DNA of 64,000 nucleotides from Gammaproteobacteria bacterium. Its GTDB lineage: Bacteria; Pseudomonadota; Gammaproteobacteria; CBDBNL01; JAAOII01. Position numbers and translations under genes: made by a program. Shown piece after piece: positions 4,158 to 22,647 of the stretch. Where the stretch lies: assembly GCA_965215225.1 (NCBI GenBank), contig OZ244039.1, positions 111,771 through 175,770 of the forward strand, in the 5' to 3' direction. The notes under the pieces are model-generated. The model made no database searches, was not told the origin of the DNA, and saw only the letters and a program-made list of their open reading frames with translations. The stretch's first letter is position 1. Every line of letters begins with the position of its first letter.

Positions 4158-4599
4158 TTATACCAGATGATTTGGTTTCTTATTATCCATCCATGTTTTT
4201 GCATCTCTATCGCTATTCTTTGAGGTATCATTTGTAAGTTACCATCAATATATAAGTGTCCCCCAGATTCAAAAAGAACGCTCCATCATCTTTTAGTATT
4301 CGCAACATTTTCTTGCCTAAGGAAGATATCTTTCGGACATAGTCATCAGGGCTTCTCTCTAAACCTATTTGGTGTTCAGAATTATAGTCTCGCAAATTCC
4401 AGTAAGGTGGGGAAGTCACTATCACCGCTATAGATTTATCGGGTATCCTTTTCAGAGCCGCTTCAACTTCAGCAATAATCACCAATGGAATAGGATTCTT
4501 AGGCAATTCAATAAGATCCCTGTCATATTCCAGATGATTCAATGGATTATTTTGCAATAATACATTAAAGCTGTTTTCTATACTTCTAAGTTTATACAC
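4158..4599 (-). pseudogene. N-terminal fragment of the same beta-class DNA methyltransferase. It has a catalytic motif IV TSPPY and an additional 1-nt frameshift in a poly-A run at about 4231-4233.
   Basis: ORF 4228-4599: ...SIAVIVTSPPYWNLRDY...GAFFLNLGDTY, then a stop. Continuation in the +1 frame (MIPQRIAIEMQKHGWIIRNQIIWY) is colinear with CcrM [23 protein letters not shown]. After removal of the IS and one TSD copy it joins in-frame to KPNHMPSA on the other side of the IS. Confidence 0.7.
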
Positions 4600-4671
4600 G
4601 CAAGTTTATACACGCAAGAATTAAATATAAAAAGTAAAATGTCATTTTATCTGCACTTTACAAAAGATAAA

Positions 4672-4815
4672 ATTTATTATAAGAAAAATAATGGTGGATT
4701 AACATTTAAACTGCAAATACTAAATTATTGTCTATCCCACTGAGTTGTTGAAACATCTCAGCGGGTATTTTGAATCCGAGGCACTTTCGTGGTCGGTGAT
4801 TCAATCAGTTGAACA
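4672..4815 (-). mobile_element. IS30-family right-end remnant (diverged IRR plus the last ~25 codons of the transposase).
   Basis: ctgagttgttgaaacatctcagcgggtattttgaatccgaggcactttcgtggtcggtgattcaatc matches the 3' end of the intact transposase gene (NNRPRKCLGFKTPAEVFQQLSG) in reverse orientation. Confidence 0.55.
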
Positions 4816-5112
4816 CTCTTCTTATTTCTTGCTTGGTGATGCACTTATGATGTAAATTCACGAGTAACTCTTATATAAAGGAGGAATCATTATGAGCTGG
4901 AAAAATTCACAACCTCAGGAGCTGCCCTTAAGAGCAAACTCGCCGCCTAGATCCGCCTACACTATTTAATCAACGCTCAATTTCAACCTCACCCCATAAA
5001 AACACTTTTATTAGTTAGAATAAACTAATTAATCAAACCTTTCTCCCTATATTAAGGATATAATAAGGTCTGATTAATTTAATATTGACCTACTATTGAG
5101 TAGAATAAGAAG

Positions 5113-5445: not shown

Positions 5446-5639
5446 GACAAAAGAGGGAAGGTTGGGAGGGATGTAAATATTAAGACAAAAGAGGGGATAC
5501 AGGGAGGGGTATAAAAATCAAGGAGGATTGAAGAGAATAGAAAATTAGAAGGGCAAGTTTCTCCCTTTTTGCTGTATAGTTTCTCAAATGTTGTTAATTA
5601 TTCAAATCTTTCTACGTGAAGTAGTATAATGAACATTGT

Positions 5640-6310: not shown

Positions 6311-7564
6311 TTAAGCCTCGCCACCGATCTTCTTCACCAACACTTTCGCATTACGGCAATAGGAAATGTGTGGCAGAGGCAGTTTCTCCTTAGTATTCAC
6401 AAAGCCCTTTTCGCGAAACCACTCAACTGCTTGGGTGGTCAGCACAATCAGATGGCTATATCCTTGCCCTATGGCAAGATTTTCCATTGAATTCAAGACC
6501 CGACTGCCATAGCCACGACCAGCGTATAGATTCTTGACTACAACACACTCAAGTTCGACATAGCCCCGCTTCCCTTCCACAGGGGACAGGGCGGCGCAAC
6601 CTATGATATTGTCGTCTTGCTTAATGATACGAAAGTCCTTGGTCTTCTTTTGCAACTGCTTTAGGCTGCGCGGTCTCAACAGTCCCTCTTGTTCTAAAGG
6701 CGCAATCAAGTCTTTTATCATCGCCATATCACGGCGCTTTGGTTCTATCAGCTCCTCATAAGAATCGGCATTAATCATCAAGCCATAGCCTTGGGCGGTC
6801 AATAGTTCACTAACCAAGGCGTTTTCTTGATGCGCGGGCAATAGATGAACTCGTGGCGCGCCCATATCACAATAGTGAATCATATCAGCCAAGACGGGAC
6901 GGATGGATGCCTTCGCCCGCTTCATAAAGGATTCCGCCTCCGCGCGCGGAATTGCCTTCTTATAGTCAGCATCTGACAGCCCGGTATGATAAAGAATGAC
7001 CTTATCGGCCGCCAAAGACCTCACCAGTTCTGCTACTAAATTGCGCTCGCTAAGCAGATAGCCGATTCCTTGCTTATCGGCAGCTAGCGGAGTGACAAAC
7101 AAAACATATCCCATATCAAGCAGCTGGATCATGCCATCGGCTGCCACTCTTCTTACTCTGCCGTGATGTTGCATATCTATTCCATCAATAATACCTTGTG
7201 GGCGAGCAAGAATCCAGCTACCTTGAATAAACTTCGGTTTTTGCCCCACCTCATAGCTTGCCCGCGTCGCCAGTCTATTACAATGCCCATAGAGAGCGGC
7301 ATATTTACTAGCCAGGTCATTGAGCTCGGCAGTCTTAAGCGGCTCATTTGGAGCAGCGACAGGTTCGGTAATACAGAGAACACAATGAATACCAAGACTT
7401 TGGCACATAGCCCAATCTTGACCTAGGATCCTGCTGTGCTCTTCTACCTCCTTCCTCACCAAGGCTCCTGACACAACGAAAACAAAGCACTTTCCTCTAT
7501 AGTTGTTAATATAAGGAAGTGCTTGACGAAGCAGAAGTCCCCTTTCTTGCGCGTTATTAGACAT
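6311..7564 (-). CDS. argA: Amino-acid N-acetyltransferase (N-acetylglutamate synthase): N-terminal amino-acid kinase domain plus C-terminal GNAT domain.
   Basis: N-terminus RQALPYINNYRGKCFVFVV...LGIHCVLC matches the ArgA/ArgB start (SVPYINTHRGKTFVIMLGG...LGIRLVVV). 417 aa. C-terminal GNAT segment (...LYAGRGYGSRVLNSMENLA...). Confidence 0.75.
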   Translation of the reverse strand: MSNNAQERGLLLRQALPYINNYRGKCFVFVVSGALVRKEVEEHSRILGQDWAMCQSLGIHCVLCITEPVAAPNEPLKTAELNDLASKYAALYGHCNRLATRASYEVGQKPKFIQGSWILARPQGIIDGIDMQHHGRVRRVAADGMIQLLDMGYVLFVTPLAADKQGIGYLLSERNLVAELVRSLAADKVILYHTGLSDADYKKAIPRAEAESFMKRAKASIRPVLADMIHYCDMGAPRVHLLPAHQENALVSELLTAQGYGLMINADSYEELIEPKRRDMAMIKDLIAPLEQEGLLRPRSLKQLQKKTKDFRIIKQDDNIIGCAALSPVEGKRGYVELECVVVKNLYAGRGYGSRVLNSMENLAIGQGYSHLIVLTTQAVEWFREKGFVNTKEKLPLPHISYCRNAKVLVKKIGGEA

Positions 7565-7612: not shown

Positions 7613-8278
7613 ATGACATCTCTAATTATGAATCTAATTTTCCTTGGCCCGCCCGGCAGTGGTAAGGGCACTCAGGCTGCAACCCTTTGCAGCGACAAGA
7701 ACCTTGCTCATATAAGCACGGGCGATATGCTGCGCACTGAAATTAAAAGAGGCTCTGCCCTAGGCAAGCAGGTCAAAGAAAAGATTGCGCAGGGAGAGCT
7801 CATTGACGACCAACTAATTATCCAACTAGTCAAAGAGAGGATAAAGCAAAGGGATTGTGAGAAAGGATTTGTCTTGGACGGCGTGCCACGGACGCTTGAA
7901 CAGGCTCAATCTCTGACCGATGAAGCAGTCCCAATAGATCATATTATTGAATTCCAATGTTCGTCTGAGCTATTAACTCAGCGGTTAACCAATCGGCGCG
8001 TCCATCTGGCGTCTGGCCGCATATACAACACACTCTACAACCCTCCCAAACAAGAAGACAAAGACGATATCACTGGCGAGCCGTTAATCCAGCGAGAGGA
8101 CGATAAGGAAGAAACTGTGCACGCTCGTATCCAAGAGTATTACGACAAAACCCAGCCATTGAGAGAGTATTATCATCAGTTGGCGAGTCAGTTGCGATCG
8201 ATAAAATACCATCTCCTTGATGCGTCCTTGCCGGCCAAACAAATCAAGCAAAATCTACTCAGGGCTATCTATAGCTGA
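7613..8278 (+). CDS. adk: Adenylate kinase.
   Basis: P-loop LIFLGPPGSGKGTQA, ...ISTGDMLR..., LID domain, 221 aa. Confidence 0.92.
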   Translation: MTSLIMNLIFLGPPGSGKGTQAATLCSDKNLAHISTGDMLRTEIKRGSALGKQVKEKIAQGELIDDQLIIQLVKERIKQRDCEKGFVLDGVPRTLEQAQSLTDEAVPIDHIIEFQCSSELLTQRLTNRRVHLASGRIYNTLYNPPKQEDKDDITGEPLIQREDDKEETVHARIQEYYDKTQPLREYYHQLASQLRSIKYHLLDASLPAKQIKQNLLRAIYS

Positions 8279-8296
8279 TTTCTCCTTGCTCAGATT

Positions 8297-8989
8297 GTGA
8301 AGAGGATTCTCGCCCTAGATTGCGCAACCAATGCTTGTTCAGTGGCGCTCAATCTAAATGGCGAATACAAGCAGATACTAAAAACCAAAGCCCGCATCCA
8401 CAATCGCATCCTGCTGCCTATGATGGACAGGCTGCTCAGCCAAGCGGGACTGCGGCCAAAAGACTTAGACCTGCTAGTATGTGGAATAGGGCCAGGAGCC
8501 TTTATGGGAGTGCGTATTGCAGTCGCGGCTGCTCAAGGCTTGGCGACAGCCGCCGACTTACCACTCATGCCCATCTCATCCCTTTATGCTCTGGCCCAAC
8601 AAGCCTGGCAAAACCAAGCAAGCAAGCCACTCAAAGGAGGAATTCTTGCCCTGCTAGATGCCCGCCTGAGCCAAGTATATTGGGGTTGCTATGAGGAATA
8701 TGAGGAACATCAAGAAGCCAAAGAGCCTAAACGATTATTAAAAGAGAGAACAGCCCCCCAGCTTGCTTTTCCAACCCAAGTCAAGCCTCCTATAGACATA
8801 GCCTTAGGAATCGGGGAAGGCTGGAGCTACCAAGCCGAGCTGCCTTCCCCATTGAAAGAATTAAAACAAGTAGCTAAGGATGCAATGCCACAGGCTCGTC
8901 ATCTGATTGAAGTGGCGCTCGGTCAAAAACAGCCTCTTATCTATAATCCTCGCCTGCTCAGCCCATTGTATTTGCGTAATCAGGTCTGA
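8297..8989 (+). CDS. tsaB: tRNA threonylcarbamoyladenosine biosynthesis protein TsaB (YeaZ).
   Basis: MKRILALDCATNACSVAL...GIGPGAFMGVRIAVAAAQGLA, typical of the YeaZ/TsaB ASKHA fold. The overlapping ORF 8320-8694 is spurious. Confidence 0.8.
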   Translation: MKRILALDCATNACSVALNLNGEYKQILKTKARIHNRILLPMMDRLLSQAGLRPKDLDLLVCGIGPGAFMGVRIAVAAAQGLATAADLPLMPISSLYALAQQAWQNQASKPLKGGILALLDARLSQVYWGCYEEYEEHQEAKEPKRLLKERTAPQLAFPTQVKPPIDIALGIGEGWSYQAELPSPLKELKQVAKDAMPQARHLIEVALGQKQPLIYNPRLLSPLYLRNQV

Positions 8990-9053
8990 TTTGACAAGAT
9001 ATACAAGGATACCTTGTATTAATATGAAAATAGTTTTATAATATCAGTATAGA

Positions 9054-9127
9054 GGCCGGGATAGCTCAGTTGGTAGAGCAACTGATTCGTAACCAGTAGG
9101 TCAGAGGTTCGATTCCTCTTCTCGGCA
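9054..9127 (+). tRNA. tRNA-Thr (anticodon CGU). No encoded CCA.
   Basis: Manual cloverleaf: acceptor GCCGGGA/TCTCGGC, D-arm GCTC-AGTTGGTA-GAGC, anticodon loop TTCGTAA, T-arm AGAGG-TTCGATT-CCTCT. Close to E. coli thrW-type tRNA-Thr(CGU). Confidence 0.85.
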
Positions 9128-9153
9128 TTGAGTAAATTGTTATAGTATGAATA

Positions 9154-9960
9154 ATGGGCATATTAGACAGCTTTAGAAGGAGAAAGCAGGTTATTAGCCC
9201 CGCACAGCAGGGGCTAGAATCTCAGTCAAAGGTGCTGGGCGAGAAGAAAGTGGTGAGCACAAGTAATTCGCTTGCTCGTATCACAATTATGAATGGTAAG
9301 GGCGGAAGTGGTAAGAGCACTCTCGCCACCAATCTTGCCGCGCTTCTTTCTTCTCATGATGAGAGTGTCACCTTAATAGACAATGACCCCCAGTGTTCTA
9401 GCATTCGCTGGCTGGGTGAGCGCCCCCATGATATGACTGTTATTAAGGGGGTCACTGTCAGCGAAACCGCCAGATTAAAGAATATTCGCCTCAGATCTGG
9501 TGCAGTAGGGGCAAAGACCAACTATATCATCACCGATACTCAGGCTGGGTTGCACGGTCTTGGTCTAACCGATGTCATTGACCGCAGCGATATGATGATT
9601 ATCCCTGTTCTGCCCTCTGCTATAGACATGCGGGTAACTGCCGACTTTGTTGCCCAGATATTTCTAAATCGTTCTTATCGCAACAAGCCAAAACCCTTAG
9701 GAGTGGTCGCAAATCGGGTCATCAACGACTCTGTTATCTATCGCAAACTACAAAAGTTTTTGCTCAGTCTGAGAGTCAATTTCATCAGCACTTTTCGCGA
9801 CAACAAAGCCTACTTAGAAGCTGCCGAAAAAGGAGCAGGGATCTTTGAGTTAAATTGGCCTGGCCTTGAAGAAGAAAGACAGGAATGGCAACTACTACTC
9901 CGCTGGATAGAAGACAAGAAAGCCAAGCTACAGCCCTCCTCGTCCCTAAGCGCAGACTGA
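9154..9960 (+). CDS. ParA/MinD-family P-loop ATPase (orphan), directly upstream of ccmB where ccmA would be expected.
   Basis: Deviant Walker A ITIMNGKGGSGKSTLATNLAALLS followed by VTLIDNDPQ, a ParA/MinD signature and not the ABC ATPase signature expected for CcmA. 8-bp gap to ccmB. Confidence 0.65.
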   Translation: MGILDSFRRRKQVISPAQQGLESQSKVLGEKKVVSTSNSLARITIMNGKGGSGKSTLATNLAALLSSHDESVTLIDNDPQCSSIRWLGERPHDMTVIKGVTVSETARLKNIRLRSGAVGAKTNYIITDTQAGLHGLGLTDVIDRSDMMIIPVLPSAIDMRVTADFVAQIFLNRSYRNKPKPLGVVANRVINDSVIYRKLQKFLLSLRVNFISTFRDNKAYLEAAEKGAGIFELNWPGLEEERQEWQLLLRWIEDKKAKLQPSSSLSAD

Positions 9961-9967
9961 ACCTCAA

Positions 9968-10609
9968 GTGTCAAGCCTAGCTGGAATATTCATCATTGAA
10001 GCCAAAAGGTATGGGCGTAATGCGCACAATCTCATAACCCCGGCTGTTTTCACCACTCTCATAGCCCTGATAGCAGGCTTTGGCATGCCCCAAATGCCAG
10101 CCGATAGCCTAATATGGATTTGCGCTATCCTAGCCTTTCTTCTTAACACCGACCAGCTTTTCCGTCAAGACTATCACAATGGCTTGTTGGAACAGTATTT
10201 TTTCGCCAGCCTGAGCCCCTACTTCATTATTCTCATCAAGACTGGTATCTTTTCCTTATTCAATAGTGCCGTCCTATTAGGCATCAACCTACCCATCATC
10301 ATTCTATTGCTCCAGCCCCAGACGGATCAGTTGGGACTGCTCCTCTTAGCTTTGTTAGCTATTATCCCCAGCCTCACTATGTTGGTGGCACTTGGCGCCT
10401 CCTATGCATTGGCATCCTCAGGTAGCCTCATGCCGGCACTAATAACCATTCCTTTTTATGTCCCGCTGGTTATCCTAGCCATGTTGGCAACCAATGACCC
10501 TTTGAACTATGCTTACTATCTCTCTTTATTAGTAGCCTTGGCGCTGCTATATGTCTCATTATTAGGCCTCGCCATTCAATTCATCCTAAAAAATCTTGCT
10601 GCCTCTTAG
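9968..10609 (+). CDS. ccmB: Heme exporter protein CcmB.
   Basis: ~213 aa polytopic membrane protein in ccmB position before ccmC. Six predicted TM segments. Confidence 0.7.
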   Translation: MSSLAGIFIIEAKRYGRNAHNLITPAVFTTLIALIAGFGMPQMPADSLIWICAILAFLLNTDQLFRQDYHNGLLEQYFFASLSPYFIILIKTGIFSLFNSAVLLGINLPIIILLLQPQTDQLGLLLLALLAIIPSLTMLVALGASYALASSGSLMPALITIPFYVPLVILAMLATNDPLNYAYYLSLLVALALLYVSLLGLAIQFILKNLAAS

Positions 10610-11321
10610 TCTCACCAAATTGCTTGCTTTACGCAACTGCTATAACCTTAGCGAACGGTTGACTCCTATCCTGCTCCCCATATCCATCGGACTACTGATC
10701 TGCGGAGCACTCTGGGGGCTAATCTATGCGCCGACTGACTTTCGCCAGGGCGACGCCTATCGCATCATCTTCATCCATGTTCCGGCTGCTTTTAGCGCCG
10801 AAGCCATCTATATGTTCATGGCGGCGGCTGCCTTCATATTTCTCATTTGGCGGATCAAATTGGCATATTTGCTAACCAAGGCGGCTGCGCCCCTTGGTCT
10901 TAGCATGGCGTTTATCACCCTTGTGACCGGCTCCCTATGGGGAAAGCCAACCTGGGGAGTCTTCTGGGTTTGGGATGCCCGTATTGTTTCGGTGTTGCTC
11001 TTGTTCATCCTCTATCTAGTGATTATCAACATCCAAAAGTCTCTTCGCCCAGCCGATTTTGCCGCCAAAGCCAGCTGCGTCATCATTCTGCTTGGCTTAG
11101 TCAATATTCCCATCATCAAGTTCTCGGTTGATTGGTGGTTCACTCTTCATCAAAGTGCCTCTCTTTCCCTCTTTCGCCCTCCTTCTATGCCACCCTCTAT
11201 GTGGATGCCACTACTCTTTATGATATTTGCCTTCAACCTATACCTTATCACCCTATTGCTCCTTCGCCTTAACAACGAGATCCTATACTCTGAAAGGCAC
11301 AACCGCTGGTGGCAAGAATGA
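10596..11321 (+). CDS. ccmC: Heme exporter protein CcmC.
   Basis: Tryptophan-rich WWD motif (WGKPTWGVFWVWDARI) and conserved His residues. 241 aa. Confidence 0.85.
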   Translation: MLPLSLTKLLALRNCYNLSERLTPILLPISIGLLICGALWGLIYAPTDFRQGDAYRIIFIHVPAAFSAEAIYMFMAAAAFIFLIWRIKLAYLLTKAAAPLGLSMAFITLVTGSLWGKPTWGVFWVWDARIVSVLLLFILYLVIINIQKSLRPADFAAKASCVIILLGLVNIPIIKFSVDWWFTLHQSASLSLFRPPSMPPSMWMPLLFMIFAFNLYLITLLLLRLNNEILYSERHNRWWQE

Positions 11322-11476
11322 TAACCGAACTCTTTGTGATGAACGGTCATGGCATCTATGTTTGGTCTGCTTATCTCCTGTGCGCGCTGGTGTTGGCGGT
11401 TAATCTAATCCACCCGCGCCGTGAGCTGGCTCGGCTGACAAAGACTCTCAAGACTAAAAGCAAGAATGCGTCCTAA
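11318..11476 (+). CDS. ccmD: Heme exporter protein CcmD (52 aa). Not in the ORF track.
   Basis: Manual translation: MITELFVMNGHGIYVWSAYLLCALVLAVNLIHPRRELARLTKTLKTKSKNAS. Single TM segment, start overlapping the ccmC stop and stop overlapping the ccmE start, as in canonical ccm operons. Confidence 0.6.
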   Translation: MITELFVMNGHGIYVWSAYLLCALVLAVNLIHPRRELARLTKTLKTKSKNAS

Positions 11477-11873
11477 GCGGCGACAAAATCTACAAGCGCT
11501 CATCTTTATCATGCTAGCAGTAGCCTCAGCTACCGCTATCATCCTCTATCAACTCAGAGCCAATATCAACTATTTCTACACCCCATCTGATTTAGCTACC
11601 AGCGATCTGCCATCCGATGCAAGAATAAGAGTCGGCGGCTATGTGGTAAATGGCAGCCTTCGCTACAACCAAGACGGCAGCGCCCAATTCCTGCTAACCG
11701 ATAATCTGGCGGAAGTAGCGGTGGTCTATAGGGGCGTCCTGCCAGCCCTCTTTGCCGAAGGGGATCAAGCCGTAGTAATAGGAACAAATGGCAACAAGCA
11801 AATACTGGCAACCCAGGTCCTAGCAAAGCATGACGAGAACTACCGCCCCCCTGAACTGAAAGAATTAGAATAG
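11466..11873 (+). CDS. ccmE: Cytochrome c-type biogenesis heme chaperone CcmE.
   Basis: N-terminal TM anchor, OB-fold region ...RIRVGGYVVNGSL..., 135 aa. ccmF does not follow; the repeat array begins 7 bp after the stop. Confidence 0.8.
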   Translation: MRPKRRQNLQALIFIMLAVASATAIILYQLRANINYFYTPSDLATSDLPSDARIRVGGYVVNGSLRYNQDGSAQFLLTDNLAEVAVVYRGVLPALFAEGDQAVVIGTNGNKQILATQVLAKHDENYRPPELKELE

Positions 11874-11894
11874 CACCCTGTAGTTATTCCAACT

Positions 11895-13204
11895 AATGGA
11901 AGCGGTAAAGAAGCAGCGCGTCTAAACAAATCTGATTTAATTGAGGTTCGCCAATCCCATCCAAAAACTACCAGCTATGCTATTGGATTGAAGCTGAGGA
12001 ACTAAGTCAAAGCCAGCCATATATAAGAAGGAAAACAGCTTGGCTAGATGGGTCTGGTTGGGTTCAGCTGTCCTAGTCGCTTCGGTTGAAGCTGAGGAAC
12101 TAAGCCAAAGCAAGCTACCTATATATAAGAAGGAAAACAGCTTGGCTAGATGGGTCTAGTTGGGTTCAGCTGTCCTAGCCGCTTCGGTTGAAGCTGTTGA
12201 ATATAAGAGACTAGTCAAAGCCAGCTACCTATATATAAGAAGGAAAGCAACTTGGCTAGATGGTCTGGTTGGGGTTGATCTGTCCTAGCTGAGAACCTAG
12301 TCAAAGCCAGCCACCTATATATAGGAAGGAAAGCAGCTTGACTAGATGATTCTAGTTGGGATTCATCTGTCCTAGCTGAGGAACCTAGTCAAAACCAGCT
12401 ACCTATATATAGGAAGAAAAGCAGCTTGACTAGATGATTCTAGTTGGGATTCATCTGTCCTAGCTGAGAACCTAGTCAAAGCCAGCTACCTATTATATAA
12501 GAAGGAAAGCAGCTTGGCTAGATGGGTCTGGTGGGGATTCTTCTGTCCTAGCCGTTTCGGTTGAAGCTGTTGAAGCTGAGGGACTAGTCAAAGTCAGCCA
12601 CCTATTACATAAGAAGAAAAGCAGCTTGACTAGATGGTCTGGTTGGGGTTGATCTGTCCTAGCTGAGAGCCTAGTCAAAGCCAGCTACCTATATATAGGA
12701 AGAAAAGCAGCTTGACTAGATGGTCTGGTTGGGGTTGATCTGTCCTAGCTGAGAACCTAGTCAAAGCCAGCTACCTATATATAGGAAGAAAAGCAGCTTG
12801 ACTAGATGGTCTGGTTGGGGTTGATCTGTCCTAGCTGAGAACCTAGTCAAAGCCAGCTACCTATTATATAAGAAGGAAAGCAGCTTGGCTAGATGGGTCT
12901 GGTAGGGATTCTTCTGTCCTAGCCGTTTCGGTTGAAGCTGTTGAAGCTGAGGGACTAGTCAAAGTCAGCCACCTATTACATAAGAAGAAAAGCAGCTTGG
13001 CTAGCTGGGTCTGGTTGAGTTCCTCTGTCCTAGCCGCTTTGGTTGAAGTTAGAGGGCCTAAGTCAAAGCAAGTTGTCGATTTAAGGTGAAAGGCTAATCA
13101 AAATCAGTTTGAAGAAGAAGGCAGACTGTCTAAGCGAGTCTGGTCTAGTGTGGGCTTGGCAGGCGTCCCCTCCAAAGACCACCAGCTACGCCAGTTGTCA
13201 ATGG
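11895..13204. repeat. Tandem array of ~12 copies of an 86-118 bp repeat derived from the 3' cassette-junction element of the giant lipoprotein genes. Each unit carries an 8-bp stem ctagtcaa/ttgactag around a TATATATA core and a GCTTC-GGTT-GAAGC hairpin.
   Basis: Direct reading: units such as gcagcttgactagatggtctggttggggttgatctgtcctagctgagaacctagtcaaagccagctacctatatataggaagaaaa recur head-to-tail. Longer variants insert ccgtttcggttgaagctgttgaagct. No unique spacers between units. Confidence 0.85.
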
Positions 13205-15613
13205 CTAATGGTGTGCAGCGAATGGCCGGATATTGACTTGAAGTGCCGAAATCCCAGATAAGATTGTCAGTCGAATTTGTTCATCTGCCTCAATGCTCCC
13301 GCTATGATCCCTATCACACCAGACCGCCAATGGCACGTTATCCCCATCGCTAAATATATTTGTCTCCTCGTCCCACCTATCATAAATATCTGTATAGCCA
13401 GTTGGGCTGCGGAGATCACTAGTGGTCTTGGCTTCACCAATGTTGCCAATACTGCCACTACTAAGAACATCACTGTCCCAATAGGAAGCAACTCCATCTC
13501 CGTCTGAAGCCGTCCCCGTCATAGCAGTATTACTGCCTGAAACTACATAAGAATAAGCAACCCGACCAGCATTAGCATCAACGCCAAGGAAGCCCACCAG
13601 ACCGCCTACAGAAGCAAGAAACAACCCCCCCATTCCGTTCACCTCAGCCACCACAACCGAAGAAGAATGAATCCGAGCACCTGGACCCCGCCCCAACAGA
13701 CCACCTACACTATTACCATTATCCCCTCTCACTTCACCTGCCACAACCGAAGAAGAATATATCTCAACCGATTCACTATCCCCTACCAGACCACCTACAT
13801 TACCCGCAACACCACTCCCTCTCACCTCACCCACCACGACCGAAGAAGAATATATCTCAACCGATATGCCCCCAGTCACTGGGCCCCACCCCAACAGACC
13901 TCCTACTTGATTAGCCCCGCTCACCTCACCCGCCACAACCGAAGAAGAATGAATCCGAGCCAATTCACCATACCCCACCAGACCGCCTACAACATTATCA
14001 GTCCCGTTCACCTTACCCGCCACAACCGAAGAAGAAACAATCCGAGCACTCATACCTCTCCCCATCAGGCCGCCTACATTAATACCACTCCCGCTCACCT
14101 CAGCCACCACAACCGAAGAAGAATTAATCTGAGCCGACGAACCAACCCCCATCAAACCGCCTACACTACCAACCCCTCTCACCTCAGCCACCTCAACCGA
14201 AGAAGAAACAATCCGAGCCGAGCCACCATTCCCTACCAGACTGCCTACAACTCGCCTTCCTATCACCGCTTCGGCGCGGAGAGTCAAATTGCGAATCTCT
14301 GAACCCGTAGCTATATAGCCAAACAAACCCACACAATCCTCAGCTGGACGACTAATGCTTAGATCACTGATCGTCCAGCCATTGCCTTCAAAAGTCCCAT
14401 CAAAAGCAGCTCCTTGACATAAAGCCATACTACTATCTGTATCATTCCCTAATGGCTGCCAGCCTTTGCCCTCTCTATAAGCGGCAAGACTTATATTCCC
14501 AACCAACTCATAGCCAGAACAAGAAGTGATCGCAGCGCCATCACCACAGCCAGTGCTATCAAGCGACCCATCCGCCGATAGCTTTCGCCCATTACCTTCT
14601 AGAGCATGCCTCACTGCATCCAATTGCGCCGCCGTCTCTATCTCTATCAACCCATCCCCATCTCTATCTACGTCCGCCCCATCCATAGAACCATCATTAT
14701 CATCATCTGTATCTTCACCTGCATCTCGGCAACCATCCATATCACTATCGGTCGAAGGATTACTCATCCAACCTGTCTCACCAGCAGAACAGTCGTCCAA
14801 ACTATCACCTACCTCATCATTATCACAATCCGCTAACAACCGACAACTCATCCCACCTGAATTAGTCAGCTGCTCCTTCGTATCAGTATCATCCAACCCA
14901 TCATTATCATCATCTGTGTCCTCAGTCTCATCACGGCAACCATCCCCGTCATTATCGCTAGAAGCATTGCTCTGCCAGTTGATCTCGTGACCAACAGCAT
15001 CCGGATCATCACATCGGTCTGCCTCATTATTAACATCATCGCCATCTAAGTCATCATCCACACTGTCTGCTCGTCTATCCCCATCCGTATCCAGCCCTGA
15101 CCCAATGCCGCCATCGTCGTGGTCGGCCTCATTCTCTGGCCAAACAAAATTGATTGCTACCCTCTGCTGTCTGCCATCATCAAGAGTCCCTATAATCGCA
15201 AAGGTCCAGTTGGATTGGTCGCCTAACCCAGTGAGGTTATAACTGTCATCAGCAAATTCGTTTATGTTAATATTCTTATTTACAGACTCGGTTCTATTGG
15301 TCGCCGTAATCCTCAAAGAAACCATCTCGCCAAAATCCGATTGGTTGCCTATTTGAAAACCATCGGGTATGGGAGCAAAAGTGAGATTTACCTCAAAAGG
15401 CCGGAGAGAACTAGGAGGACCATCACCTGGACCGCCTCCCCCATCTGAACCATTTTCCGAATCATCGCTTCCCCCACCAGCACAAGCCGTAAGAACTAGA
15501 AAGCTGAACCCAACTAAAAAGAAGAGAAGCCGCCCGCCTCGCAAAATCGGAAGGAAAGCAAGCACGAAAGAGGAAAGAAGACCCCGCACCAAACTAAACA
15601 AGCGGGGGGGCAT
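13205..15613 (-). CDS. Giant surface lipoprotein, single cassette (802 aa): lipobox LVLTAC, Ig-like FEVNLTFAPI domain, thrombospondin type-3 repeats, ~10 GLUG-motif repeats (VGGLVG), C-terminal AVWCD...WDFG...YPA domain.
   Basis: ORF track. TSP3 consensus D.D.DG..D..D.C..........D.DGDG..D visible repeatedly. GLUG period of ~19-22 aa. Paralogous to 16365-21803 and 62612-64000. The plus-strand Ser/Pro-rich ORFs inside are antisense artefacts. Confidence 0.7.
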   Translation of the reverse strand: MPPRLFSLVRGLLSSFVLAFLPILRGGRLLFFLVGFSFLVLTACAGGGSDDSENGSDGGGGPGDGPPSSLRPFEVNLTFAPIPDGFQIGNQSDFGEMVSLRITATNRTESVNKNININEFADDSYNLTGLGDQSNWTFAIIGTLDDGRQQRVAINFVWPENEADHDDGGIGSGLDTDGDRRADSVDDDLDGDDVNNEADRCDDPDAVGHEINWQSNASSDNDGDGCRDETEDTDDDNDGLDDTDTKEQLTNSGGMSCRLLADCDNDEVGDSLDDCSAGETGWMSNPSTDSDMDGCRDAGEDTDDDNDGSMDGADVDRDGDGLIEIETAAQLDAVRHALEGNGRKLSADGSLDSTGCGDGAAITSCSGYELVGNISLAAYREGKGWQPLGNDTDSSMALCQGAAFDGTFEGNGWTISDLSISRPAEDCVGLFGYIATGSEIRNLTLRAEAVIGRRVVGSLVGNGGSARIVSSSVEVAEVRGVGSVGGLMGVGSSAQINSSSVVVAEVSGSGINVGGLMGRGMSARIVSSSVVAGKVNGTDNVVGGLVGYGELARIHSSSVVAGEVSGANQVGGLLGWGPVTGGISVEIYSSSVVVGEVRGSGVAGNVGGLVGDSESVEIYSSSVVAGEVRGDNGNSVGGLLGRGPGARIHSSSVVVAEVNGMGGLFLASVGGLVGFLGVDANAGRVAYSYVVSGSNTAMTGTASDGDGVASYWDSDVLSSGSIGNIGEAKTTSDLRSPTGYTDIYDRWDEETNIFSDGDNVPLAVWCDRDHSGSIEADEQIRLTILSGISALQVNIRPFAAHH

Positions 15614-15799
15614 TATTGCGGCTATGTAACAAGGCGGACATAGACAAGGTAAGATAAGAGAAATAAAAGCGAGGCATTGCCGAGGCTAGATAAAAGAAAT
15701 CAGAAAGCAAGGCATTCACAATAGTGAAGAAGCGAGACCTGGTCACGCTAGATAAGAAAATTTTTGTTATCATGGCTAGTAATTGGTTAATGAATTCAT

Positions 15800-15960
15800 A
15801 GGTGGCATTATACCTCTTTTATAGATCTTTTATCTTTTTTTTAACTTTTTTTATCTCTTTTTTACATATCTTTTATCTTTTTTTTGTATCTTTTTTATCT
15901 CTTTTTTATATCTCTTTTAGGTCTCTTTTATATCTTTTTTCTGGTTATTTTTGTCTCAAC
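15800..15960. repeat. Degenerate ~13-bp repeats (tatctcttttttat)n in the 5' region of the 13205-15613 gene.
   Basis: Direct reading of ...ttttatctcttttttacatatcttttatcttttttttgtatcttttttatctcttttttatatctcttttaggtctcttttatatctttttt... Confidence 0.6.
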
Positions 15961-16035
15961 TAGCATTCAATTAATAGAAGATGAATGGTTAGTTCTGCCA
16001 GCTCAATTAACATCAGGACAATGCTCCTTGCCTGT

Positions 16036-16446
16036 TGGATTGAAGCTGAGGAACTAAGTCAAAGCCAGCTACCTAATATATAAGAAGGAAAGCAGCTTGA
16101 CTAGATGGGTCTGGTCGGGGTGTGCCACCAACCAAAGACCACCAGCTATGCCGTTTCGATTGAAGCTGAGAAACTAAGTCAAAGCCAGCTACCTAATATA
16201 TAAGAAGGAAAGCAGCTTGACTAGGTGGGTCTGACTGGGTTCAGCTGTTCTAGCCGTTTCGGTTGAAGCTGGGGGGCTAAGCTAAAGCAAGTTGGTAGTT
16301 TAGGAAAGCAGCTTGGCTAGATGGGTCTGGTTGAGTTCCTCTGTCCTAGCGGCTTCGGTTAAAGCTAGGGAAGCAACGCGTCTAAACGAGGCTGGTTTAG
16401 CCGGGGTTTGGCTGGCGTCCCCTCCAAAGACCACCAGCTACGCCAG
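16036..16446. repeat. Second array (3-4 units) of the junction-derived 100-115 bp repeat, overlapping the 3' coding end of the 16365-21803 gene.
   Basis: Same unit family as 11895-13204 (ttgaagctgaggaactaagtcaaagccagctacctaatatataagaaggaaagcagcttgactagatgggtctgg...). The conserved junction core cctccaaagaccaccagctacgccag lies at 16415-16446. Confidence 0.8.
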
Positions 16447-19400
16447 TCATCAGGGGCTAGCGGGGTGCAGAGAAGAGCGGGATATTGACTTGAGGTGCCG
16501 AAATCCCAGATGCGATTATCAGGGGTTCGTTCATCTGCCTCTATGCTCCCGCTATTATCCCTATCACACCAGACCGCCAAAGGCACGTCTTCCCCATCGT
16601 TAAATATATTTGTATGATTGCCCCAGTTGGCATAAATATCTGTATAGTCAGTTGGACTGCGGAGATCACTAGTGGTCTTCGGGTCACCAATGTCGCCACT
16701 AAGGACATTACTAGTATCACTGTCCCAATAAGAATCAACATCAGTAATCCCGCTTCCAACTCCAGCCAACATATTGGTATTCCTGCCTGAGACTACATAA
16801 GAATAAGCAACCTTGCCAGAGTAAAAGGCTCCCGCCAGACCGGCTATACTACCTAGTAAACCACCACTCCCGCTCACCTCACCCACCACAACCGAAGAAG
16901 AATGAATCCGAGCCGAGCCACCATTCCCTACCAGACCGCCTACACTACTACTCCCGTTCACCTCACCTGCCACAACCGAAGAAGAATGAATCCCAGCCCG
17001 AACACCATTCCCTACCAGACCGCCTACATACAAACCAGTTCCGCTGACCTCAGCCACCACAACCGAAGAAGAAAAAATCCGAGCCGAGTGACCCCATCCT
17101 ACCAGACCACCTAGAACCCCCAACCCGCTCACCTCTCTTGCCACAACCGATGAAGAAAAAATATGAACGCCATCCCCCCACCCCACCAGACCGCCTACAC
17201 GAAGATTACCTTTCACCCCACCCACCACAACCGAAGAAGAAACAATCCGAGCCAAGCCACCATGCCCCACCAGACCGCCTATACTAGTATTCCCACTCAC
17301 CTCACCCACCTCAGCTGAAGAAGAATTAATCCGAGCCGAGCTGCCATCCCCCACCAGACCGCCTACACGAAGATTACCTTTCACCCCACCCACCACAACC
17401 GAAGAAGAAACAATCCGAACATCTGTCCCATACCCCACCAGACCGCCTACTCTATCACCACCTACTACTGCCTCGGCATGAAGAGTCAGATTGCGAATCT
17501 CTGAATTCGCAGCTATATGACCAAACAAACCCACGCAATCCTCACCTGAACGATTAATGCTTAGATCACTAATCATCCAGCCATTGCCTTCAAAAGTCCC
17601 ATCAAAAGCAGCTCCTTGACATCCATCTGTAACATTATCTGTATCATGACCCAAGGGTTGCCAGCCTTTGCCTCCATCACCATCTGCATAGGCTGCAAGA
17701 CTTATATCCGCAACCAGCTCATAACCATTACAGGTCCTAATGCTGTCGCCATCACCACAGCCAATGGTGTCGGTCGTCGCATTCTCTGATAGCTGGCGCC
17801 AGCTACCATGCAAAGCATACCTCACTGCATCTAATTCCGCGGCCCTAGCTATCTCTATCAAACCATCGCCATCATCATCTATATCTATATTGTCGTCATA
17901 ACCATCGCCATCGCAATTCCTATCTAATGCACATCCAGCTGCCTCATCACCATCTCGGACCTCATCATTATCATCGTCTGTATCCTCATCTGCATCACGG
18001 CAACCATCGCCATCATTATCAGTAGAACCATTGCTCGTCCAACCCGTCTCACCAGCAGAACACTGGTCTGAATTATCATCTACCCTATCATTATCGCAAT
18101 CAGTCTTTATTACACAATTTGCCGCCACTTCATCTATGTCTCTGACAGTATCCCCATCGCAATCTGCTAACAGCGAACAACTCACCCCATCCAAATTATT
18201 CTGCTGCTCCCTCACATCAGTATCATCCAATCCATCATTATCGTCATCTGTATCCTCACCCCCATCACGGCAACCATCCCCATCATTATCGGACGATGAA
18301 TTGCTCGTCCAACTTGTCTCACCAACAGAACATTGATCTGAACTATCAGTTACCAAATCATTATCATCATCTTCATCCTCACCCTCATCACGGCAACCAT
18401 CCCTATCATGATCGGTAGAACTATTGCTTAGCCAATCGGGCTCGCCAATAGAACATTGGTCTGAATTATCATCCACCTCATCACTATCACAATCAGTTTC
18501 TATTACACAATTTGATGCCATCTCATCTATATCTCTGACAGTATCCCCATCGCAATCCGCTAACAACCAACATGTCACATTATTTGAATTAGTTAGCCGC
18601 TCTCTCGAATCATTATCCCCTAACCCATCATTATCACAATCCTCATGCAAACGACACTCCCTTCCATCAACCATTCCTGTATCCAGCAAATCTAAAATAT
18701 TATCATCATCATCATCCTCATCACAAGCATCCCCTTCAGTATCACCATCAATATTATATTGTCGAGGATTTACAACAAGCCGGCAATTATCCCTAACATC
18801 CGGAACCCCATCATTATCATCGTCATCATCCACACTATCCGCTCGCCCATCCCTATCTGTATTTAGACCTGGCCGAATACCGCCGCTTGCGTGATCTTCA
18901 CGATTCTCTTGCCAGATAAAATTTATTCTCATATTTTGCTGCCTCCCATCACTAAGAGCCCCTATAATCCGAAAAGTCCAATCGGTTTGATCATCTAGCC
19001 CGATAAAATCATAATAGCTGTCATCAATAAATTCGGCTATGTCAATATCCTCTTCTACTACCAACCCGCCTTCATTAGTTGCTTTGATGTTCAAAGAAAC
19101 CGAATCACCAAAATCCGATTGGTTAGCTATGCGAAAACCATCGCTTATGGGAGTAAAAGTGAGATCCACCTCAAAGAAAGGAAGCAGCTCATCTAAACGG
19201 GTCCGGTTTAGTCGAGGTTTACCAATCTCATCCAAAAACCACGAGCTACGCCAGTCGGCAGGGGTTAGCTGAGTGCAGCGAATGGCGGGATATTGACTTG
19301 AATTACCGAAATCCCAAATAAGATTGTCCTCGGTTTGTTCATCTGTCTCAATGCTCCCGCTATTATCCTCATCACACCAGACCGCCAATGGGACGTCTTC

Positions 19401-21803
19401 CCTATTGCCAAATATATTTGTAGCATTGTCCCAATCGGCATAAATCCCTTCATAGCCAGTCGGCATCCGAAGTGCATCGCTGGTCTTGGCTTCCCCAGTG
19501 CTTCCACTATTAACACCATTAACATCACTGTCCCAATAAGAATCAACATCAGTAACCCCGCTTCCAGTCCCAACCAGCATAGCAGCATCTGAGACCACAT
19601 AAGAATAAGCAAGCTTGCCAAAATCAAAACGCCCCGCCAGGCTGCCTATAAAATTACGTCGCCCACTCACCTCAGCCACTACAACCGAAGAAGAATGAAT
19701 TTGAGCGAATGGTCCATCCCCTACCAGACCGCCTACAAAACTAAAAAAACTGTTCACCCCGCTCACCTCAGCCACCACGACCGAAGAAGAGTGAATATGA
19801 GCACCTTCACCCAACCCCACCAGACCGCCGACAGTAGAGCGCCCGCGCACTTCACCCGCCACAACCGAAGAAGAATCAATCCGAGCCGATAGACCCCAAC
19901 CCACTAGACCGCCTATTAGGCTATTCCCGTTCATCTCACCAACCACAACCGAAGAAGAATGAATTTGAGCCGAGTCACCCAAACCCACCAAACCACCTAT
20001 CCAATCATTAGTCCCGCTCACCTCGCCAGCTACGACCGAAGAAGAAACAATCCGAGCAAATTCACCAGACCCCATCAGACCGCCTATACTCTGCACACCC
20101 ATCACCTCACCCACCTCAACCGAAGAAGAATGAATCCGAGCGAATTCACCATACCCCACCAGACCGCCTACAGCATTTCTACCTATCACTGTCTCGGCAC
20201 GAATATTCAAATTGCGAATCTCTGAATTCGCAGCCACATGACCAAACAAACCCACACAATCCTCGCCTGAACGACTAATACTTAAATTGGTAACCGCAAA
20301 ACCATTGCCTTCAAAAATTCCGTCGAAAGCGGCTCCTTCACATTCACCTTCAAAATTTAGTGGTCCTTCCCCCAAGGGCTGCCAGCCTTTGCCGTCCCTA
20401 TAAGCAGCAAGACTTATATTCCCAACCAGCTCATAGCCATCACAGAACCTAATGCCGTTGCCACCACCACAACCAGTGGTGTTGAGTTCCGCATCCGCTG
20501 ATAACCTACGCCCATCGCCATTCAGAGCATACCTCACTGAATTCAATTCCGCCGCCGCGGCTATCTCTATCAAACCATCGCCATCTCTATCTATGTCCTC
20601 ATCATCCATAACCCTATCATTATCATCGTCATCATCCTCACCTGCATCACGGCAACCATCGCCATCATTGTCGGTAGAAGGATTGCTCGTCCAACCTGTC
20701 TCACCAGCAGAACACTGGTCGAAATAATCATCTACCTCATCATTATCACAATCCTCATACAAGCGACACTCCCTCCCATCAACCATTCCGGTATCCATCA
20801 AATCTGGCAATAGATCATTATCACAATCCTCATATAAGCGACACTCCCTCCCATCAACCATTCCGGCATCCATCAAATCTGGCAATAGATCATTGTCATC
20901 ATCCATATCCTCAGTCTCATCACGGCAACCATCCATATCATTATCGCTAGAAGAATTGCTCGTCCAACCTGTCTCACCAGCTTCGCACAGGTCCAAATTA
21001 TCATTTACCTCATCATTATCACAATCGCTGTCTAATTCACATCCAGCCTCCTCATCCAGATCTTCTACCTTATCATTATCATCATCTGTATCCTCAGTCT
21101 CATCACGACAACCATCCCCATCATTATCGGTCGATGAATTGCTCGTCCAACCTGTCTCGCCAGTTTCACACAGGTCTGAACTATCATTTACCCTATCATT
21201 ATCATCATCCTCATCCACACTATTCGCTCGCCCATCCCCATCCGTATTGTTTCCCGCCCGAATGCCACCGCTCTCGTGATCTTCCTCATTCTCTTGCCAC
21301 ACAAAGCCTATCTCCACCTCCTGCTGCCTGCCATCACTAAGAATCCCTATAATCGCAAGAGTCCAGTTGGATTGCTCATCTAGCCCAGTAAAGTTATAGC
21401 TGCCATCAACAAATTCGGCTATGTTGATATTTAGCTCTTCTACCACCGACCCATTCTCACTGGTTGCCTTGATGCTCAAAGAAACCAAATCACCAAATGC
21501 CGATTGGTTGCCTATTTCAAACCCGCCACTTATAGGAGCAAAGGTGAGATTTACTTCAAAAGGTCGGAGAGAACTAGGAGGGACTTCAGTTGGACTGCCT
21601 CCCGAACCCCCACCAGCACAAGCAGTAAGAGTTAGAAAGCCAACCCCAACCAAAAAGAAAAGAAACCGCTTGCCTCGCAAAAGCGGAGGGAAGGCAAGCA
21701 CAAAGGAGAAAAGAAGTCCCCTCACTAAACTAGACACGCGAAGAGCGGACACAAAGGAGTGGCATAACGGAGGCACAAGAAAGACATAGACGAGGGAAAA
21801 CAT
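16365..21803 (-). CDS. Giant surface lipoprotein formed by in-frame fusion of two complete cassettes (1812 aa). Each half has the FEVNLTF Ig-like domain, TSP3 repeats, GLUG repeats and a WDFG/YPA C-domain. The halves are joined through a translated junction element (...YPAIRCTQLTPADWRSSWFLDEIGKPRLNRTRLDELLPFFEVDLTF...).
   Basis: ORF track. Internal repetition of the whole domain order. Nucleotides 19190-19330 match the intergenic junction or tail element found after the other cassettes. Confidence 0.7.
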   Translation of the reverse strand: MFSLVYVFLVPPLCHSFVSALRVSSLVRGLLFSFVLAFPPLLRGKRFLFFLVGVGFLTLTACAGGGSGGSPTEVPPSSLRPFEVNLTFAPISGGFEIGNQSAFGDLVSLSIKATSENGSVVEELNINIAEFVDGSYNFTGLDEQSNWTLAIIGILSDGRQQEVEIGFVWQENEEDHESGGIRAGNNTDGDGRANSVDEDDDNDRVNDSSDLCETGETGWTSNSSTDNDGDGCRDETEDTDDDNDKVEDLDEEAGCELDSDCDNDEVNDNLDLCEAGETGWTSNSSSDNDMDGCRDETEDMDDDNDLLPDLMDAGMVDGRECRLYEDCDNDLLPDLMDTGMVDGRECRLYEDCDNDEVDDYFDQCSAGETGWTSNPSTDNDGDGCRDAGEDDDDDNDRVMDDEDIDRDGDGLIEIAAAAELNSVRYALNGDGRRLSADAELNTTGCGGGNGIRFCDGYELVGNISLAAYRDGKGWQPLGEGPLNFEGECEGAAFDGIFEGNGFAVTNLSISRSGEDCVGLFGHVAANSEIRNLNIRAETVIGRNAVGGLVGYGEFARIHSSSVEVGEVMGVQSIGGLMGSGEFARIVSSSVVAGEVSGTNDWIGGLVGLGDSAQIHSSSVVVGEMNGNSLIGGLVGWGLSARIDSSSVVAGEVRGRSTVGGLVGLGEGAHIHSSSVVVAEVSGVNSFFSFVGGLVGDGPFAQIHSSSVVVAEVSGRRNFIGSLAGRFDFGKLAYSYVVSDAAMLVGTGSGVTDVDSYWDSDVNGVNSGSTGEAKTSDALRMPTGYEGIYADWDNATNIFGNREDVPLAVWCDEDNSGSIETDEQTEDNLIWDFGNSSQYPAIRCTQLTPADWRSSWFLDEIGKPRLNRTRLDELLPFFEVDLTFTPISDGFRIANQSDFGDSVSLNIKATNEGGLVVEEDIDIAEFIDDSYYDFIGLDDQTDWTFRIIGALSDGRQQNMRINFIWQENREDHASGGIRPGLNTDRDGRADSVDDDDDNDGVPDVRDNCRLVVNPRQYNIDGDTEGDACDEDDDDDNILDLLDTGMVDGRECRLHEDCDNDGLGDNDSRERLTNSNNVTCWLLADCDGDTVRDIDEMASNCVIETDCDSDEVDDNSDQCSIGEPDWLSNSSTDHDRDGCRDEGEDEDDDNDLVTDSSDQCSVGETSWTSNSSSDNDGDGCRDGGEDTDDDNDGLDDTDVREQQNNLDGVSCSLLADCDGDTVRDIDEVAANCVIKTDCDNDRVDDNSDQCSAGETGWTSNGSTDNDGDGCRDADEDTDDDNDEVRDGDEAAGCALDRNCDGDGYDDNIDIDDDGDGLIEIARAAELDAVRYALHGSWRQLSENATTDTIGCGDGDSIRTCNGYELVADISLAAYADGDGGKGWQPLGHDTDNVTDGCQGAAFDGTFEGNGWMISDLSINRSGEDCVGLFGHIAANSEIRNLTLHAEAVVGGDRVGGLVGYGTDVRIVSSSVVVGGVKGNLRVGGLVGDGSSARINSSSAEVGEVSGNTSIGGLVGHGGLARIVSSSVVVGGVKGNLRVGGLVGWGDGVHIFSSSVVAREVSGLGVLGGLVGWGHSARIFSSSVVVAEVSGTGLYVGGLVGNGVRAGIHSSSVVAGEVNGSSSVGGLVGNGGSARIHSSSVVVGEVSGSGGLLGSIAGLAGAFYSGKVAYSYVVSGRNTNMLAGVGSGITDVDSYWDSDTSNVLSGDIGDPKTTSDLRSPTDYTDIYANWGNHTNIFNDGEDVPLAVWCDRDNSGSIEADERTPDNRIWDFGTSSQYPALLCTPLAPDDWRSWWSLEGTPAKPRLNQPRLDALLP

Positions 21804-21965: not shown

Positions 21966-22225
21966 GAGGTGAGATAAGAGAATAGAAGCGGGACCCAATA
22001 TCCACAATATTGAAGAAGCGGAGCTTCACTTCCTTGTCTTCACCGAAAAACAAAAATTGTCTTGTCATGGTTAATGATTGAAACTAATAAGAACATTGTT
22101 CAGCTGCTTATCAGCTAGCTAAAAGCAGAAATGGTTTCATAGTCCTATTATATCTTTTCTTCCAACTAAAAAAAGGAATACTGTAATCATATTAGCAGTC
22201 TTAGTTTGTTAGTTTTTGTCAGTTT

Positions 22226-22645: not shown

Positions 22646-22647
22646 TA

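Follow-up and report, generated by a model that had tools for sequence, protein, structure and literature searches.

Tandem arrays that appear to derive from the 3′ boundaries of surface-lipoprotein genes in an uncultured gammaproteobacterial lineage

Two large genes for lipoprotein-like surface proteins lie between ccmE and znuA in a 64,000-nucleotide (nt) stretch of DNA from an uncultured gammaproteobacterium (Gammaproteobacteria bacterium, assembly GCA_965215225.1, contig OZ244039.1, forward-strand positions 111,771 to 175,770; the whole stretch is called the window here). Three arrays of tandem repeats accompany them. Gene 1 (13205-15613, minus strand), which is translated as an 802-amino acid (aa) protein and is frameshifted near its end, is followed on its 3′ side by array 1 (12002-13057, minus strand). 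Gene 2 (16365-21803, minus strand, 1812 aa) has array 2 directly downstream (16036-16364, minus strand, with three units at 16054-16364), and array 3 (22226-22660, minus strand) is an orphan with no GLUG-type gene upstream. The arrays are probably minisatellites that arose by serial tandem duplication spanning the 3′ boundary of surface-lipoprotein genes of this family.

All three arrays had been placed by an earlier note made from the letters of the window alone, and their positions are confirmed by Tandem Repeats Finder and by a search for the 19-nt anchor AAGCAGCTTGRCTAGATGG, in which up to 3 mismatches were allowed and units were delimited by splitting at the anchor. The anchor has 15 matches in the window against 0.04 expected, all on the plus strand and all within the three loci. 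Array 1 consists of 11 units, array 2 of three and array 3 of about four; they run head to tail in a single orientation, and the unit length ranges from 86 to 120 nt. In array 1, short units of 86-88 nt are mixed with long ones of 98-112 nt (98, 111, 86, 88, 87, 112, 87, 86, 86, 112 and 103 nt, in order) and are organized into a 371-nt higher-order repeat. Tandem Repeats Finder accordingly reports periods of 86, 88, 102 and 371 nt at 11988-13034 (86-94% matches), and a hidden Markov model (HMM) of the unit core matches every array 1 unit with E values from 1e-17 to 1e-22. The earlier count of about 12 units at 11895-13204 holds as regards the presence of an array; it resolves into the 11 units plus two less regular pieces. 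The first, at the distal end (~11895-12001, minus strand), is a degenerate copy of the coding tail which, by three-frame translation and DNA alignment, reads SW, a stop and then FLDGIGEPQLNQICLDALLL, with stops. The second is the proximal 3′ flank of gene 1 (13058-13103, minus strand), whose motif CAACTTGCTTTGACTTAG is the right arm of the unit hairpin.

Pairwise identity among units is graded from 65 to 100%. Two neighboring units of array 1 are identical, a pair 371 nt apart is 99% identical, and the 371-nt block is repeated at 93-99%; the identical units and the 99% pair indicate recent amplification. Stops fill all frames of the units, and the longest open reading frame (ORF) has 61 aa. 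The tetranucleotide CTAG reaches 31.6 per kb in array 1 (11983-13058), three to four per unit, compared with 3.6 per kb in the rest of the window. Units abut directly, with no unique spacers between them, and Pfam and NCBIfam scans of the window ORFs find no Cas family, which agrees with the earlier judgment that these are not clustered regularly interspaced short palindromic repeats (CRISPR). Other array-forming systems were likewise rejected: an integron attC array, as the window has no tyrosine recombinase and the units are contiguous with no cassettes between them, and a diversity-generating retroelement, as there is no reverse transcriptase domain in the window and the differences between tail copies involve all bases.

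The source of the units can be traced to the adjacent genes. Gene 2 ends in …DDWRSWWSLEGTPAKPRLNQPRLDALLP and a stop, and the DNA coding for this C-terminus (coding tail 16365-16451) is what the earlier note had called the cassette tail. Translation and direct repeats show that gene 2 consists of two modules fused in frame, with the junction (~19166-19253) running from ADWRSSWFLDEIGKPRLNRTRLDELLP into FFEVDLTF. For gene 1, comparison with gene 2 places the ancestral-frame coding tail at 13104-13207 in minus-strand frame 2, where it ends in …NWRSWWSLEGTPAKPTLDQTRLDSLPSSSN and a stop. In DNA alignments the units are colinear with the coding tail of these large minus-strand genes (…WRSWWSLEGTPAKPRLNQPRLDALLP and stop), with the 3′ flank and with the internal module junction, so the description of the units as degenerate copies of the cassette tail is borne out. 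On the minus strand they read as a decayed tail (…NQTHLAKLLSFLY… and a stop) with stops in every frame. One 120-nt unit of array 2 retains the WWSL portion of the tail. Array 3 is a mosaic in which about four pieces can be told apart, namely a single unit of the TATATA type (22511-22613), a near-intact tail copy (~22405-22497, SSWWSLEGTPAKPQLNRTRLDELLPSLN and stop) and two degenerate pieces. Within gene 2, the unit HMM gives a further match that touches the internal junction (19166-19227, E = 0.006). The periods of 86-112 nt, the graded divergence and a unit traceable to adjacent source sequence are those of a minisatellite, and the units are thus decayed, stop-rich tandem copies of the 3′ boundary of the gene. 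Gene 2's own 3′ end has no TATATA core in the alignment. That core may have come from the opening codons of the module that follows (FFEVDLTF) where the two modules are joined in frame; the alignment is suggestive of this but too short to support a claim.

The same association recurs in related organisms. About ten homologs of the C-terminal domain were found, all metagenomic and 53-68% identical. In 206.7 kb comprising the window and related loci (given L numbers here), the core HMM identifies 30 unit cores, all on the gene strand. With the exception of orphan array 3 and of a single core at the start of a contig, they form contiguous arrays that lie downstream of a WRxWW tail, at 44-1136 nt from it, and none occurs in the 81.8 kb of L006-L011. 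Each homologous gene in the relatives is followed by 1-6 homologous units. In L001, three tail copies and five or six units follow one gene, two units a second and one a third; in L004, two tandem genes have one unit each after them; in L003 the period is 144 nt and takes in the whole decayed tail, and L005 retains a remnant only. The motif CAACTTGCTTTGACTTAG stands directly after the stop codon in L003, L004 and L005 as well. The periods (86-120 nt in the window, 96 and 110 nt in L001, 144 nt in L003) and the unit boundaries differ among loci, which points to repeated duplication of the same boundary and not to one element with fixed ends.

This last observation bears on the suggestion, also raised by the earlier note, that the units are REP/MITE-like, that is, repetitive extragenic palindromic (REP) sequences or miniature inverted-repeat transposable elements (MITEs). 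On such an account a non-autonomous mobile element of MITE, REP or REPIN type would insert preferentially next to itself, and the internal inverted repeat and the enrichment in CTAG palindromes would fit. However, the units have a single orientation, no target-site duplications and an inverted repeat that is internal and not terminal. Their length and boundaries vary by locus with no defined ends, all 30 cores lie beside the gene family with no dispersed copy in 207 kb, no RAYT or transposase is linked to them, and they are homologous to coding sequence. The unit pattern GAARGAAARCAGCTTGRCTAGATG has no match in genome, metagenome and viral contig collections, the looser pattern AGTCAAAGCCARN{12,24}GRAAARCAGYTTG has none in genome and metagenome contig collections, and blastn of the array against plasmids and phages returns nothing. 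The mobile-element explanation is thus largely refuted and very improbable. REP sequences of Enterobacteria are 20-40 nt long, are scattered over hundreds of intergenic sites that have no relation to each other and, within bacterial interspersed mosaic elements (BIMEs), take alternating orientations. The units resemble REP/BIME sequences as extragenic imperfect palindromes, sometimes clustered at gene 3′ ends, but they are longer, all direct, and confined to the flanks of one gene family in the 206.7 kb examined.

The genomic setting gives a further view of the arrays. The window carries ccmB (9968-10609, plus strand; Pfam CcmB, 1.6e-14), ccmC (10596-11321, plus strand; Pfam Cytochrom_C_asm, 4.7e-30), ccmD (11318-11476, plus strand; read by translation) and ccmE (11466-11873, plus strand; Pfam CcmE, 2e-26). 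The array had been reported to begin 7 bp past the ccmE stop, which is imprecise: the stop codon is at 11871-11873, homology to the array-free L006 ends at 11874, and the first recognizable repeat-derived sequence is at ~11895. The earlier note had also proposed that the array separates ccmE from the rest of a ccm operon, and this does not hold. In four relatives (L006, L007, L010 and L011; CcmC 73-90% identical, with values of 90, 89 and 73%) the gene order is tsaB-parA-ccmB-ccmC-ccmD-ccmE-znuA-ispE-polA-mnmA, with znuA directly after ccmE in these four contigs and ccmF after ccmE nowhere in this clade. The operon is therefore not split by the arrays, which belong to a block of surface-protein genes that has been inserted. 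By blastn, L006 (83% DNA identity) aligns with the window at 2-4238 (window 7649-11874) and 4502-4896 (window 23812-24204), and the 11.9-kb insertion relative to close relatives (11875-23811) holds the three arrays, the two large lipoprotein genes and a DNA methylase gene. No unit is found in the empty site of L006. In locus L008 (80%), ccmE and znuA are separated by another, small insert that includes a methylase gene, and a TSP3/Glug gene lies elsewhere. The ccmE-znuA intergenic site looks like an insertion hotspot, and the gene family looks mobile in position.

Several other features of this region were recorded. CcmC is about 50% identical to named Pseudomonadales or Marinobacter sequences, and an exact-sequence look-up of the window CcmE returned no record. 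The contig of the closest relative, L009 (CcmC 93% identical), stops 84 nt past ccmE. In L009 the ccmE 3′ end (AAAGAATTGAAATAG..TTTGG) is duplicated ~50 nt downstream (5540-5637), where the short-read contig ends, and this end may be an assembly break at a repeat. Within znuA (23874-24992), an in-frame 12-nt repeat, GAAGAGCATGGT, occurs in ~23 copies at 24195-24468; the protein has 372 aa compared with 290 aa in L006, and the repeat looks like an expanded His/Glu-rich loop. A second insertion relative to L006 (30491-43228, ~12.7 kb) contains five Sulfotransfer_2 genes, two GT92-like glycosyltransferase genes and an rve-type transposase gene. Its sulfotransferase and glycosyltransferase families are more typical of eukaryotes.

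The genes of the insertion belong to a repetitive family. Both gene 1 and gene 2 encode a lipobox-like LTAC N-terminus, Asp-rich TSP3-like repeats and 28-aa GLVG…SSSVV repeats; NCBIfam gives a weak throspo3_MtsC match, and the homolog in L008 has faint TSP_3 and Glug matches. In gene 1, a 2-nt insertion relative to gene 2 at 13300-13340, ~50 codons before the end, causes the annotated ORF to stop at 13205 in the wrong frame, so gene 1 is either a pseudogene or affected by a sequencing error. An 87-nt unit present 2.9 times at 21717-21963 spans the 5′ leader of gene 2 and its N-terminus as annotated, which makes the true start codon uncertain; tandem duplication has thus affected the 5′ boundary as well. 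The leader between array 2 and the start of gene 1 holds a T-rich 11-nt tandem repeat in ~10 copies (15817-15940). A fourth family gene (62612-63982, minus strand; tail EWRDWWFLNATGKPELDRDRLEEALSQ and stop) has no TATATA unit, and its closest L001 counterpart has one. Downstream of it, 61450-62488 contains tandem arrays of 7, 14 and 28 nt with a purine-rich minus strand.

The insertion has at its inner edge an N6/N4 DNA methylase gene (22913-23659, minus strand; Pfam N6_N4_Mtase, 6.2e-29), a homolog of which adjoins GLUG-type genes in L001 and sits between ccmE and znuA in L008. Beside it is a conserved ~60-nt segment (…CCTCGGGTTCAAAACACCCGCTGAGGTGTTCCAACAACTCAGCGAG…; window 22680-22760) that adjoins the methylase gene in L001 too, where it occurs twice (6840-6900 and 7180-7240). 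Another N6/N4 DNA methylase gene, at 2275-4599, is apparently split into two pieces (4228-4599, profile positions 2-58; 2275-3147, profile positions 82-220) with an IS30-family transposase gene (3080-4144) between them.

A hairpin is the most conspicuous feature of the unit. The earlier note had assigned to every unit an 8-bp stem, and with it a second hairpin. The first hairpin exists, but its stem, CTAGTCAA/TTGACTAG, is perfect in 5/11 array 1 units only, the remaining units having TTGGCTAG. A hairpin with a TATATATA centre is present in part of the units, and the GCTTC-GGTT-GAAGC hairpin is real but restricted to long units. The folding of single units, which had been proposed as a check, gives a divided result: for whole units there is no gain over shuffles (z between -1.4 and +1.4), and a signal appears for the isolated core of short units, as discussed below. 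The hairpin is a true inverted repeat of a recently amplified subfamily and not a demonstrably conserved RNA structure. Across 20 diverged cores, double changes are seen at only 2 pairs, and the observed covariation values are attained by 429-477 of 500 shuffles, the copies being few and closely related. The central pair of the stem is broken in 11 of these 20 copies, and the RNAalifold consensus (-0.5 kcal/mol) does not contain the hairpin. Long units and the cores of relatives give inconsistent folding scores (z from +0.35 to -2.3). There is no clear strand signal from G-U asymmetry, with 81.7% of stem cells pairable on the opposite strand as against 86.5% on the gene strand.

Regulatory roles for the units were considered as well. 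A sigma-70-like match (9-10/12, minus strand) is present in four of the ~18 units, with TAGCCA-17-TATAAT at 12891 and 12520 and TAGTCA-17-TATATT at 16223 and 16103. Promoter activity of the units was rejected, because just these four match sigma-70 and the genes have TATAAT hexamers of their own between array and start codon. The hexamer of gene 1 (GGTATAATG, minus strand) is a consensus match at 15807-15812, between the gene and array 2. A similar one lies upstream of gene 2 (22147-22152, minus strand; read from the sequence), and L004 carries TGGTATAATG at the position matching that of gene 1. These hexamers are putative promoters of the genes. The units were also rejected as intrinsic terminators: the stem is followed by GGTTCTCAGC or TCCCTCAGC with no U-tract, and a terminator scan of the whole region yields 11 sites compared with 10.9 expected, of which one marginal site (5 pairs, 13007-12993) falls in the arrays. 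In Rfam, the window gives a single tRNA at the gathering score and nothing at E <= 1 in 11800-13300.

The four sigma-70-like matches would also be the starting point for viewing the arrays as tandem small-RNA genes with a promoter in each unit, as in the Nostoc NsiR1 repeats. Only four of the ~18 units carry the match, however, and the -10-like TATATA belongs to the palindrome; with no terminator, no covariation and whole-unit folding no better than that of shuffles, such an array is hardly credible. The small-RNA or attenuator role put forward in the earlier note thus finds no support, given the empty Rfam search, the missing covariation and the single marginal terminator-like site.

Serial duplication of the gene boundary would account for these features together. 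The duplicated segment would be 100-145 nt long and run from ~25 codons before the gene end (…WRSWWSLEGTPAKPRLNQPRLDALLP), through the stop codon, to 30-70 nt into the 3′ flank, and duplication may have proceeded by slippage or unequal exchange. Copies would then have lost their reading frame, shrunk through internal deletions to 86-112 nt and been re-amplified in blocks. The inverted repeat of the unit may favor slippage, since the best-pairing units are those most recently amplified. As the gene family duplicates or moves, the arrays would travel with the genes; they would therefore sit 3′ of each gene copy, with one (22226-22660) left as an orphan. A duplication that spans a boundary leaves one intact copy of each gene end and would thereby be tolerated by selection, so that in a tightly packed genome the boundary-spanning duplications would be the survivors. 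The homology of the units to the gene tail, their position and orientation, their recurrence in relatives and the occurrence of other boundary-derived arrays are direct observations. The arrays themselves would have no dedicated function. As a side effect, they would offer homology for unequal recombination that adds, removes or fuses modules, as in the two-module gene 2.

Three sets of observations weigh against this interpretation. First, between the window and L001 or L004 the ~60-nt unit core has best-match scores of 45-50 of 60, compared with typically 35-45 for adjacent coding windows. This conservation exceeds the neutral expectation, but the many target copies inflate the best match and the point is not decisive. 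Second, the isolated 55-nt core of the short units in the window is distinctly more stable than its shuffles, with folding z values of -3.4 on the gene strand and -4.0 on the opposite strand, and pairing is possible in 86.5% of stem cells across the 20 diverged cores. Third, the association with surface genes resembles that of Neisseria arrays for which a function has been proposed, and neutrality is not demonstrable from sequence alone.

The second of these observations would also fit the idea that the conserved unit core acts in cis at gene 3′ ends, as RNA or as DNA, for example as an atypical terminator, an mRNA-stabilizing hairpin or a protein-binding site, and that the arrays are multiplied copies of it that would insulate genes in convergent or tandem arrangement. 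Further points in its favor are that every gene in L001 and L004 has one core 40-140 nt past its tail motif and that array 1 occupies the gap between gene 1 and ccmE, which are convergent. The stem nevertheless lacks covariation, its central pair is broken in 11 of the 20 copies and its stability in relatives is inconsistent (z from +0.35 to -2.1); furthermore, there is no U-tract, no Rfam match and only one marginal terminator-like site in the arrays, and the 3′ end of gene 2 has no TATATA core. A cis-acting element is thus improbable, if less so than a mobile element or a small-RNA array.

The third observation leads to a comparison with NIMEs, the intergenic mosaic elements of Neisseria. 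Like NIMEs, the present arrays are non-coding, have units of 50-150 nt with recurring short inverted repeats, lie beside surface-protein genes, vary in copy number among relatives and are candidates for promoting recombination of flanking genes (PMC1797815). NIMEs are composed of RS units flanked by dRS3 inverted repeats, ATTCCCN8GGGAAT (PMC1797815), and this motif has no match in the window with up to 1 mismatch. In contrast to NIMEs, the units are direct copies of the 3′ end of a neighboring gene and not unrelated RS families, no phage or recombinase is linked to them, and the host belongs to the uncultured Gammaproteobacteria and not to Neisseria. Another parallel is provided by the silent C-terminal cassettes that lie downstream of adhesin or toxin genes of the fhaB/mafB type (PMC1797815): there too, the region downstream of a large surface-protein gene holds copies of its 3′ part. 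Long alternative C-terminal domains are the product of those cassettes, whereas the copies described here have at most 28 codons, are broken by stops and contain no alternative domain.

A role of the arrays as recombination substrates, which had also been suggested in the earlier note, is possible. In its stronger form, the arrays would be selected recombination tracts, NIME-like, retained beside surface-protein genes since they raise homologous or site-specific exchange, so that adhesin modules are gained, lost, fused and relocated. In the window and in relatives, every copy of the repetitive surface-lipoprotein family is flanked by arrays, the fusion in gene 2, the only one seen, is joined exactly at the tail sequence, family genes occupy different genomic contexts among relatives and the unit core is well conserved; the chains of alternating inverted repeats also have an architecture like that of NIME arrays (PMC1797815). 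Against this, Pfam and NCBIfam scans of ORFs find no recombinase, integrase or RAYT gene in the window, the empty site of L006 contains no unit, and unit boundaries vary by locus, which leaves no fixed site. Arrays alike in kind, moreover, stand at the polA/mnmA junction and at a permease gene, where a variation system is implausible. Selection for recombination is accordingly rather unlikely, although it deserves more weight than the cis-acting element.

These further arrays show the same pattern at unrelated genes. At the polA/mnmA junction (28669-29394) there are ~6 copies of a segment made up of the last ~25 polA codons, the stop, a spacer of 8-10 nt and the first ~10 mnmA codons, interleaved with 12-nt GGTGGATTTGGG expansions; the polA-mnmA gap is 10 nt in L006 and ~800 nt in the window. 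Another example is found at an amino-acid permease gene (44884-46337), with ~8 copies of a segment that contains the -10 box (CCCTATAATTGC), the ATG and the first ~28 codons. This region also holds a 23-nt ATGACAAAGCAAGAGGAAAGAGC microsatellite built on the start-codon region, and L006 has just 84 nt here. Both arrays are absent from L006, 83% identical. They have no plausible function and show that boundary-spanning tandem duplications arise often and persist in this lineage.

A precedent is provided by Portiera from Bemisia tabaci, in which intergenic tandem repeats have proliferated in a lineage-specific manner (PMC3673631). As in Portiera and in variable-number tandem repeats (VNTRs), head-to-tail arrays enlarge the intergenic regions of one lineage while a close relative is compact, copy number has changed recently, and slippage with a weak deletion bias is a plausible driver (PMC3673631). 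Unlike Portiera, where 7-bp microsatellites prevail, the repeats here are 86-145-nt copies of gene boundaries, either the 3′ end and flank or the promoter and 5′ end (PMC3673631). Loss of replication or repair genes has been reported for Portiera (PMC3673631), and polA is intact in the window. A more speculative proposal, to which only a small probability is given, is that the ~60-nt core and the tail are the junction element of an undescribed adhesin-module shuffling system, analogous to NIMEs or cassettes, in which arrays of gene-end copies would serve as recombination sites for the fusion, deletion and relocation of modules, or that the genome has a mutational process favoring gene-boundary duplication. 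At least four boundary-derived arrays within 64 kb would be explained by the latter process.

The arrays thus appear to be gene-boundary-derived minisatellites that are linked to one family of surface proteins and are conserved in uncultured relatives within the Gammaproteobacteria. If serial boundary duplication is correct, they would be a clean natural example of selection filtering tandem duplications in a compact genome. Only duplications spanning a boundary would survive, and intergenic ‘junk’ built from recognizable gene ends would accumulate as a result. A caution for annotation is that arrays of this sort can be taken in error for CRISPR-like, small-RNA or MITE families and can wrongly suggest the disruption of an operon. 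Their practical value is modest unless a recombination role is demonstrated. In this uncultured gammaproteobacterial lineage, the arrays are markers of a fast-evolving family whose surface lipoproteins have multiple modules, and they may aid the fusion and turnover of these modules.

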